This document shows positions 63,492-64,000 of a stretch of DNA of 64,000 nt, one piece after another. The stretch covers positions 7,484-71,483 of the forward strand of contig LCNZ01000003.1 in the NCBI GenBank assembly GCA_001002325.1. The letters are read 5' to 3'. Origin of the DNA: Candidatus Amesbacteria bacterium GW2011_GWB1_47_19 (lineage in GTDB: Bacteria; Patescibacteriota; Microgenomatia; CAZETR01; Amesbacteraceae). How positions within the stretch are numbered: position 1 is the stretch's first letter; every line of letters begins with the position of its first letter. The notes beneath the pieces are model-generated. The model ran no database searches. It saw only the letters and a list, made by a program, of their open reading frames with translations, and was not told the DNA's origin. The position numbers were made by a program, and so were the translations under genes.

Positions 63492-64000
63492 TTATATTAT
63501 TAAAATCACATAAGCCAGAACCAGTCCTCCGGCCATTATAGCTACAGTCATCAACAAATTCAAAGCCACTCCGATTTGAATTGCTTTTCTGGCCAGAGGA
63601 TTTCTCCCTATAGCTTCCACTCCACCTTTCGCAACTCTGCCGAAATATACAAATCCCAGTATAAATGCAGCCATGGCCACCAATATAGCCAATAAATACC
63701 TGAGGCTGGCCAGAGGTGCCAGTGTCGGAGCCAACAAACCTTGTCTCAAAGATTCCAGCAGATTTCCCCGGGCCGTTGTAGCCACAATAGCCGGCCGGAT
63801 ATTCACCAGGGCATATATAATAGCCTCTTCATTCCCCTCTCCCGGCATATCCTCTTCTGCCACACCCAACACATTCCCGCTTTTATCTGCCCTTTTTCCT
63901 AGCCCGGGAGTAGTCGACGAGGTAATAAAATCTCCCTTTCTTATCTTCCCGGAAACTCCGCCAACTCTCACCCTCGACCTTCCTTCCGTGATCACCGGTT
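63492..64000 (-). CDS. atpE: ATP synthase c-subunit-like protein (divergent; 5' end/start undetermined, ORF runs to window edge)
   Basis: C-terminal ~70 aa: [47 protein letters not shown]. This aligns to the c-subunit hairpin (EgIARQP loop, IGvAL helix 2), but helix 2 has no Asp/Glu. Confidence 0.5.

Follow-up and report, generated by a model that had tools for sequence, protein, structure and literature searches.

The stretch of DNA analyzed here, called the window below, comprises 64,000 nucleotides of contig LCNZ01000003.1 from Candidatus Amesbacteria bacterium GW2011_GWB1_47_19. At its right-hand end, on the minus strand, lies an F-type ATPase operon whose compact, partly overlapping genes run in the order X, b-like, delta, alpha, gamma, beta, and epsilon. 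X is the name we give to the full-length, 253-residue protein encoded in the slot where atpE, the gene for subunit c, normally sits; its stop codon lies at 63492 and the b-like gene starts at 63478, thirteen bases away. An earlier interpretation made without database searches (the sequence-only reading) had likewise put this gene in the atpE position and described a c-like subunit apparently lacking the essential carboxylate of helix 2. We find that X contains a c-like hairpin from which the carboxylate is missing throughout a large protein family, that this hairpin is fused to a domain that would lie outside the cell, and that no gene for subunit a was found nearby. The genes of the operon are as follows.

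63492..64000, minus strand: 3′ part of gene X, codons 86 to 253 plus stop (from translation of the window; full length from P0001 and L002, described below)
62888..63478, minus strand: b-like peripheral-stalk subunit, 196 residues, starting with one transmembrane helix and continuing as a long charged helix (ATP-synt_B at E = 0.021, short of the cut-off)
62437..62898, minus strand: delta (OSCP), 153 residues (OSCP 22.0 bits against a cut-off of 22.3)
60989..62440, minus strand: alpha, 483 residues (PF00006, E = 2e-69; GDRKTGKS P-loop)
60126..61010, minus strand: gamma, 294 residues (PF00231, E = 3.5e-25)
58738..60150, minus strand: beta, 470 residues, catalytic motifs intact (PF00006, E = 3e-58; GGAGVGKT and GERTREG)
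58473..58745, minus strand: epsilon, 90 residues, beta-sandwich only (PF02823 over residues 10 to 84)

Positions 63492 to 63998 (minus strand) translate to 168 residues plus a stop, the TAA codon at 63492 to 63494, and the open reading frame (ORF) exits the window at 64000. The C-terminal sequence that the sequence-only reading quoted for this ORF is exact by translation, and the start does lie beyond the window edge, as it said. The remainder was supplied by L002, a 1,988-bp contig that overlaps the window end by 779 nucleotides with no mismatches and adds 1,209 nucleotides beyond it; the first 85 codons of X fall past the window end. A database protein of 253 residues, P0001, is 100% identical to the in-window part of X. 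The gene had been taken for a plain atpE, which would encode about 80 residues; it encodes instead a three-part protein in which a signal peptide (MVKPLVTVGITMLIASFNMVYA/QG) is followed by an ectodomain region of about 130 residues, with two invariant cysteines and many invariant glycines, and then by a linker and two hydrophobic helices joined by a short loop. An AlphaFold2 model built from a 28-sequence alignment (mean predicted local distance difference test score of 85.5) showed a beta domain at residues 29 to 155, a short helix at 165 to 173, and a helical hairpin at 180 to 217 and 219 to 252. Because the predicted Sec-type signal peptide would be cleaved, the beta domain should lie outside the cell and the loop in the cytoplasm. 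X would then have the topology of subunit c, with its N terminus and C terminus both outside. In databases, the protein is annotated as "hypothetical," with the exception of one JGI record that names it "subunit c/K." The parts of X that fall in the window are listed here.

63789..63998, minus strand: C-terminal half of the predicted extracytoplasmic beta domain, residues 86 to 155 (AlphaFold2 strands; phage fiber/pre-neck-appendage barrel fold)
63708..63788, minus strand: linker, residues 156 to 182, with the short helix 165 to 173 and a conserved LLAPTLxPLA before helix 1 (model and family alignment)
63495..63707, minus strand: c-subunit-like two-helix hairpin, residues 183 to 253 (profile, fold, profile-profile, and reciprocal searches)
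63597..63605, minus strand: codons for Arg217-Asn218-Pro219 in the predicted cytoplasmic loop, counterpart of the c-subunit R(Q/N)P (invariant in 353/353)
63558..63560, minus strand: codon for Asn232, entered here as the sole conserved polar residue inside helix 2 (family alignment)
63543..63545, minus strand: codon for Val237, aligned with the ion-binding Glu/Asp of subunit c (three alignments)

Several independent comparisons related the hairpin to subunit c. Searched against all PDB sequences, the X family profile gave eight matches at E ≤ 10, six of which were F-type c subunits (Spirulina, pea, spinach, Chloroflexus, and A. woodii, the last including 4bem; E = 0.021 to 0.68). The c-subunit matches share one register, with profile positions 206 to 253 set against c residues of about 29 to 76. 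Alignment of the X family with seven canonical c subunits by hhalign placed X residues 183 to 251 on E. coli c residues 7 to 75 (E = 0.0024). When the X model was compared with the PDB using Foldseek, the hairpin matched c subunits only, with target-normalized TM-scores of 0.75 to 0.88 and root mean square deviations (rmsd) of 1.3 to 1.8 Å over 66 to 70 columns at 28 to 33% identity (chloroplast and Chloroflexus c). Conversely, a hidden Markov model (HMM) of the seven canonical c sequences was run against all ORFs of 89 related loci (1.2 Mb, six frames) and gave 27 matches at E ≤ 1; all except one of these were X proteins (26/27; best E, 3.4e-4). A match to the NCBIfam c-subunit model PRK07354 was seen with a single family member, P0065 (E = 0.11, 13 bits against a 128-bit cut-off). 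Each single score is weak, but the registers agree and the matches are specific, and for those reasons homology of the X hairpin to F-type subunit c is a reasonable conclusion. The relation to canonical c subunits proposed by the sequence-only reading therefore stands, although the particular match that it drew between IGVAL and the Bacillus PS3 protein is four residues off register and coincidental.

An acid-free helix is uninformative alone, as any transmembrane helix shows a lack of acidic residues; it becomes meaningful here because the hairpin is demonstrably c-like. Helix 2 of X (I225 to I253) contains zero Asp or Glu, and the sole acidic residue of helix 1 (R185 to G216) is E213, located in a loop-proximal GVEAIG. 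Loop-anchored alignments by hhalign, HMMER, and Foldseek all put the carboxylate of E. coli D61 on Val237, which follows Arg217 by 20 residues, the same spacing as in canonical c subunits. The ion-binding Glu had been thought to be replaced by N232/L233, which is not the position that the alignments indicate; neither register gives an acid. In the alignment of 353 X members from which all family column counts given here derive, column 237 is hydrophobic throughout (V100 I89 L70 A46 F16 G13 M11, with 0 Asp or Glu), and Asp and Glu are absent from every membrane-embedded column of both helices. The reported lack of GxGxGxG in helix 1 likewise holds for X and its 353 relatives, small residues being conserved only at positions 189, 196, 200, 205, and 211.

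Other parts of the hairpin are strongly conserved. Arg217-Asn218-Pro219 is the most conserved part of X and is invariant in all 353 members; in c rings, the R(Q/N)P loop docks the gamma and epsilon subunits. Conservation in helices 1 and 2 is helically periodic, peaking at 95 to 100 degrees per residue, and in helix 2 it defines a face made up of N232, T236, I239, G243, A247, and I250 that looks like a packing face. Position 237 points about 97 degrees off this face and has an entropy of 2.55 bits. Because it is both off the conserved face and variable, the former ion site, as read from the alignment, is unconstrained as well as absent. The Asn232 column (N312 H28 S10 Q3) lies on the packing face, where the residue may form an inter-helix hydrogen bond that makes up for the lost GxGxGxG.

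The gene for subunit a, atpB, is normally the first or second gene of an atp operon. Neither atpB nor a canonical, carboxylate-bearing atpE turned up in the operon or elsewhere in the 64-kb window, and the DNA within 10 kb of X in the 89 loci contained neither gene. Where long stretches of flanking DNA were available (L001, 1.0 Mb; L003, 264 kb; L005, 237 kb), X was the first gene of the operon and the upstream DNA was coded on the other strand. All ORFs of the loci were searched by phmmer with the AtpB and AtpE sequences of E. coli; this search, a weak test alone, returned no a subunit or canonical c, and it was backed by running the seven-sequence c HMM and Pfam on the same ORFs. The arginine motif typical of subunit a occurred in no ORF of the 89 loci. 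Proteins with multiple transmembrane helices were considered as candidates for ATP-synt_A and rejected: those in the window were M50 peptidases, an Na/Ca exchanger, and an O-antigen ligase, among others, and those in the loci were ComEC-like, M50, or 7TM_transglut proteins or had no Pfam match. The transmembrane helix of the b-like protein, considered as a stand-in for the a-subunit arginine, is poorly conserved across the family and was rejected in that role, as it has no conserved charged residue.

The sequence-only reading had also held that all other F1Fo subunits of the operon look canonical. That description does not fit the missing a subunit, the shortened epsilon, or the b-like and delta proteins, both of which are borderline by Pfam, but it does fit the catalytic part. 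The beta protein aligned over residues 14 to 465 with beta chains of solved Bacillus-type and ancestral F1 (400 bits, E = 1e-118) and scored lower against the beta of the Mycoplasma mobile G1-ATPase (297 bits) and against a type III secretion ATPase (131 bits). The arginine-finger segment of alpha could be read in the window translation. ATP-synt_ab_N, the N-terminal beta-barrel, went undetected by Pfam in alpha and beta, yet beta aligns with F1 beta from residue 14 onward. Judged by these sequences, the F1 part looks competent for catalysis. All 17 delta orthologs matched OSCP (17/17; best E, 7e-11), and b-like proteins across the family gave weak matches to ATP-synt_B, V-ATPase_G, and FliH. 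Epsilon has no C-terminal helical domain; in many bacteria, the C-terminal helices of epsilon inhibit hydrolysis.

X is not peculiar to one genome. A scan of one genome per GTDB species found relatives of X in 370 species genomes, and a separate count gave 479 clusters of the family at 50% identity (E ≤ 1e-30). The 80 best loci from the genome scan came from Amesbacteria, Woesebacteria, Levybacteria, WWE3, and further Patescibacteria. X adjoins F1 genes in about 85 of the 89, and the order X-b-delta-alpha-gamma-beta-epsilon was seen almost everywhere. In five loci (L054, L055, L056, L075, and L085), X is followed by alpha, gamma, beta, and epsilon only, genes for b-like and delta being absent from the locus; alpha is also shorter there, with 429 residues in the L085 operon (9950-14512). 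Woesebacteria showed a 1.7-kb gap between X and b, which was examined as a hiding place for atpB or atpE and rejected as such, since it is filled by a gene for a 570-residue cofactor-independent phosphoglycerate mutase (L030 1059-2768; L021 10706-12445). Apparent traces of a second ATPase operon, a "beta" match in L051 and an "alpha" match in L069, were rejected in turn because both are the transcription terminator Rho.

Some family members depart from this architecture. In long X variants (P0242 to P0263; 390 to 530 residues; loci L086 to L089), a cytoplasmic HTH_17 domain and an extra transmembrane helix replace the signal peptide. They are still the first genes of X-b-delta-alpha-gamma-beta-epsilon operons, and the divergent upstream gene there encodes a stand-alone MerR-type helix-turn-helix (HTH) protein of 73 to 77 residues. 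About 8 kb upstream of one long-X operon, a bAvd-like gene adjoins a reverse transcriptase gene (RVT_1; both within L087 482-1878), a pairing typical of a diversity-generating retroelement.

The beta domain of X resembles domains of phage structural proteins. Among predicted viral structures in BFVD, it gave matches with E values down to 1.7e-10 (rmsd of 2.1 to 2.6 Å over 130 to 140 columns, 22 to 26% identity), and the named ones include a "preneck appendage protein (barrel)," a "tail protein," and "intramolecular chaperone auto-processing domain" proteins. PDB matches were weaker and included the phi29 head-fiber base (phi29 gp8.5 N-base, 6qyy) and capsid decoration proteins, and PHROGs matches were weak and mostly unannotated. 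A 517-residue neighbor carrying an X-type beta region matched Pfam Peptidase_G2 (E = 1.2e-6). One copy of the same type of domain also occurs within giant proteins encoded immediately upstream of X on the opposite strand.

The gene divergent from X starts with a MerR/HTH_17 helix-turn-helix in 73 of the 77 loci with enough upstream DNA, and a transmembrane helix follows the HTH in those copies that were read. The protein is very long in most loci, many copies exceeding 3,000 residues, and is a mere HTH protein of 66 to 93 residues in a few lineages. The source organism of the window has this gene too, on the minus strand at L002 3-491, just past the window end, as do L001, L005, L021, L085, and others. 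As an observation in its own right, the architecture of the divergent gene resembles that of a ToxR-like membrane-tethered regulator fused to a surface fiber. In several Amesbacteria, palindromes of the form (A)CTTGGACA-N6..24-TGTCCAAG(T) lie between the HTH gene and X and may be a candidate operator for the HTH domain. One of those in L002 sits directly downstream of a TTGACA box and upstream of X; the box was taken from the sequence itself and went unscored by the promoter scan. The intergenic palindromes were found at these positions.

L002 507-539 and 869-894: between the HTH gene and X
L003 3216-3269: between the HTH gene and X
L011 5041-5084: between the HTH gene and X
L001 9757-9787: between the HTH gene and X

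Comparison with known rotary ATPases shows where the X operon agrees with them and where it does not. Like the F-type c subunit (PF00137), X has a two-helix hairpin with a cytoplasmic loop and an R-(Q/N)-P turn, and in the window, as in most loci, its gene immediately precedes the b gene of an F1 operon. The RNP form of the turn is also carried by mitochondrial c subunits. Unlike F-type c, X has no membrane Glu or Asp and no GxGxGxG, falls under every family threshold, carries a signal peptide and an ectodomain of about 130 residues in front, and has no partner a subunit, atpB being adjacent in 0 of the 89 loci. A canonical F1Fo enzyme is matched in its catalytic F1 and b/delta stalk and not in subunit a. 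Hairpins without a carboxylate do assemble into rotor rings elsewhere, in the duplicated proteolipids A. woodii c1 and V-type c/c″. In those rings, however, the other hairpins keep the carboxylate and subunit a is present, so that ions are translocated, whereas every X hairpin lacks it. The N-type ATPases (atpDCQRBEFAG) are a non-standard F-type operon found by comparative genomics; they retain a and c, the ion site being complete, and have AtpQ and AtpR in addition, and none of this holds for the X operon. The X ectodomain shares its fold with barrel domains of phage fiber bases and pre-neck appendages, a group that takes in the phi29 gp8.5 N-base and the C-terminal Peptidase_G2/intramolecular-chaperone domains of tail fibers. 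X itself, however, gave no Pfam match, and its beta domain is N-terminal to the membrane hairpin, not at the C terminus of a fiber.

The closest functional parallels are the mycoplasma Type 2 and Type 3 F1-like X0 ATPases, namely, the G1-ATPase of the M. mobile gliding motor and the MIB-MIP-associated ATPase (PMC3369863, PMC12994834, PMC11864180). In these enzymes, as in the operon here, the F1-type subunits alpha, beta, gamma, and epsilon come with a membrane part that is not Fo. Their clusters, which surface systems require, include a protein in which a signal peptide and an ectodomain precede two C-terminal transmembrane helices (PMC12994834). MMCAP2_0577 and MMOB1650 have this X-like layout, the likeness being one of published description only. 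As is probable for the X operon, the mycoplasma enzymes are associated with large surface proteins and surface functions, and they hydrolyze ATP only, as the X complex would. The mycoplasma clusters differ in having seven genes, with a 12-transmembrane-helix protein and a small cytoplasmic protein and without b or delta; they coexist with a normal F1Fo, and their ectodomain proteins are 85 to 127 kDa. The beta of the X operon is also nearer to genuine F1 than to G1 beta, by the scores given above.

The family has been seen before in part. Kantor et al. (2013) described, in a single paragraph, a transmembrane "putative c subunit" without significant homology to known subunits in WWE3/OP11 ATPase operons, and in a closed WWE3 genome they found only non-homologous "a, b, c" genes beside the F1 genes (PMC3812714). 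Their putative c subunit is almost certainly the X family, and their three unrecognized genes correspond to X, b-like, and delta of the WWE3 locus L051. They assumed that a, b, and c were all present, and the paper says nothing of a c-like hairpin, a lost carboxylate, an ectodomain, a missing a subunit, or a giant neighbor (PMC3812714). A full-text literature search yielded that paragraph as the sole mention of an odd subunit; Jaffe et al. (2020) did not discuss the ATP synthase. Reviews and metabolic reconstructions describe the F-type ATP synthase as near universal in Patescibacteria, treat it as an ordinary one, and debate whether it runs forward or in reverse (PMC11665869, PMC13293708); an ATP synthase is missing altogether from at least one closed Microgenomates genome (PMC7143001).

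The sequence-only reading had left a choice among a ring that does not translocate ions, an unusual mechanism, and an ORF that is not the real c subunit. The first of these fits best. We favor, with a confidence only somewhat better than even, a non-translocating c-like ring bearing ectodomains under an ATP-hydrolyzing F-type motor as the best explanation of the X operon. X would oligomerize into a c-ring-like cylinder whose loops dock the foot of gamma and epsilon, as its invariant loop suggests, and a catalytically intact F1 would sit on a ring with no ion site and without the half-channels of an a subunit. Rotation would therefore be uncoupled from the flow of H+ or Na+, and the X-F1 complex is probably incapable of ATP synthesis or ion pumping by the usual route. 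It would be an ATP-consuming motor only, with the energy going into rotation or conformational change of the ring and of the ectodomains that crown it at the cell surface. The work done there would probably be tied to the divergent, MerR-HTH-bearing, membrane-anchored, and usually giant surface protein that has the same beta domain. The mycoplasma F1-like X0 ATPases, which serve surface machineries, would be the analogy for such a system.

Several points weigh against this explanation. Without an a subunit, the anchoring of the b/delta stator is not accounted for, and the operons that lack b and delta fit poorly with torque-coupled work. The X ring and its contact with gamma and epsilon are inferred from conservation of the loop. 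By sequence, the X hairpin resembles c subunits only marginally: hhalign gave a probability of just 12%, and Pfam matched neither the in-window part (E ≤ 1) nor full-length X (E ≤ 0.1). Since hairpins of two helices are structurally simple, the structural match is weak evidence taken alone. The tests for atpB and atpE covered the 64-kb window and 10 kb around X in 89 loci only. Finally, the divergent HTH gene and the operator-like palindromes could mean ordinary transcriptional control instead of physical partnership; the giant protein could act as a partner, as a regulator of the operon tethered to the membrane, or in both roles.

In the most far-reaching version of the idea, which we put forward tentatively and consider rather unlikely as stated, the "ATP synthase" of Microgenomates and WWE3 would have become a rotary surface motor. 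F1 would turn a carboxylate-free ring and pass torque to a crown of phage-fiber-like ectodomains that acts on the giant protein encoded next door.

A doubtful but substantial competitor makes X a tether or activator in place of a rotor. The X oligomer would be a membrane dock for F1, or a partner activated by the gamma stalk in the way that FliJ activates FlhA in type III export, and ATP hydrolysis would aid assembly, export, or switching of the giant surface protein. The lineages in which b and delta are wholly missing suit this proposal, as do the FliH and V-ATPase G matches of the b-like proteins and the conserved location of X next to the gene of a giant surface protein with the same kind of ectodomain. 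The mycoplasma F1-like domain, moreover, is only loosely membrane-bound (PMC12994834). Most lineages, on the other hand, have a complete delta and b-like stalk, which is sensible chiefly for resisting torque, and beta is far closer to rotary F1 than to type III secretion ATPases. We also know of no case in which the lumen of a c ring serves as a protein conduit.

We think it distinctly unlikely that the complex is an ion-coupled synthase or pump after all, with a divergent a subunit encoded elsewhere and H+ or Na+ bound without a carboxylate, for example, via Asn232, Thr236, and Tyr248. These three are conserved polar residues of helix 2, the first being N, H, S, or Q in all 353 members. The stator (b and delta) has been kept, the a-subunit search was confined to the window and the loci, and reviews take the Patescibacteria ATP synthases as functional (PMC11665869). 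Against ion coupling, the conserved polar residues are on the helix-packing face and not on the surface facing lipid or subunit a, and the column equivalent to the carboxylate is unconstrained and off the conserved face. To our knowledge, every characterized rotary ATPase ring uses Glu or Asp. The 1.2 Mb surrounding the 89 operons yielded no a subunit, despite the usual position of atpB as gene 1 or 2, and even the closed WWE3 genome offered only non-homologous candidates (PMC3812714).

A place for X outside the ATPase is highly improbable. On that account, X would be an unrelated small surface or membrane protein sharing the F1 transcript, with the real c elsewhere or absent, and some features agree with it: X has no Pfam match, its ectodomain is common to surface proteins, and the phosphoglycerate mutase gene that separates X from b in Woesebacteria is proof that genes of unrelated function can enter the operon. 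It fails, however, to explain why the hairpin matches c and nothing else by sequence profile, profile-profile alignment, and fold, or why conservation in X is strongest in the loop that, in c rings, contacts gamma and epsilon. F1 genes also adjoin X in about 85 of the 89 loci, which span several candidate phyla and take in the lineages without b and delta. The chance that the operon is a decaying remnant of a former F1Fo, with a lost, c drifting, and no present function, is very slight: these organisms have reduced genomes, and at least one closed Microgenomates genome lacks an ATP synthase (PMC7143001), but the family is kept in 370 species genomes with invariant motifs and helically periodic conservation, the catalytic motifs of alpha and beta are intact, and a whole new domain has been gained, not lost.

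Beyond epsilon, the window continues with argS and then a gene for an M16 peptidase. Farther downstream it encodes an adenylate-kinase-like protein that is unusually long (54432-55508; 358 residues) and, on the minus strand at 53814-54089, a 91-residue RRM-type RNA-binding protein with an Arg/Gly-rich tail (RRM_1, E = 7e-19). A nucleoside-diphosphate kinase gene lies downstream of the operon in other Amesbacteria (L001 18783-19247). Genes of energy and nucleotide metabolism (phosphoglycerate mutase, adenylate-kinase-like protein, and nucleoside-diphosphate kinase) thus accompany the operon. Many database records with the Patescibacteria-type operon (L008, L011, L013, L014, L027, and others) are titled "uncultured Gammaproteobacteria" or "Pseudomonadales bacterium," and the organism names in that collection of metagenome-assembled genomes are unreliable for these records.

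For the biology of these bacteria, a non-translocating X ring would change how energy metabolism is read in a large group. Across much of the radiation (Amesbacteria, Woesebacteria, Levybacteria, and WWE3), the membrane half of the enzyme appears unable to move ions, and chemiosmotic ATP synthesis or an ATP-driven membrane potential should therefore not be inferred from these genes. A ring in which all hairpins lack the carboxylate, without an a subunit, breaks a rule obeyed by every characterized enzyme of the F, V, and A types. The ectodomain fused to the hairpin and the conserved giant neighbor point to the use of F1 for work outside the cell. If the complex is a rotary surface motor, such work might be, for example, attachment to or manipulation of host cells, or motility. 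Such a motor would parallel the mycoplasma gliding and MIB-MIP ATPases independently of them, and it would be the first rotary ATPase with a membrane rotor that does mechanical, not electrochemical, work.

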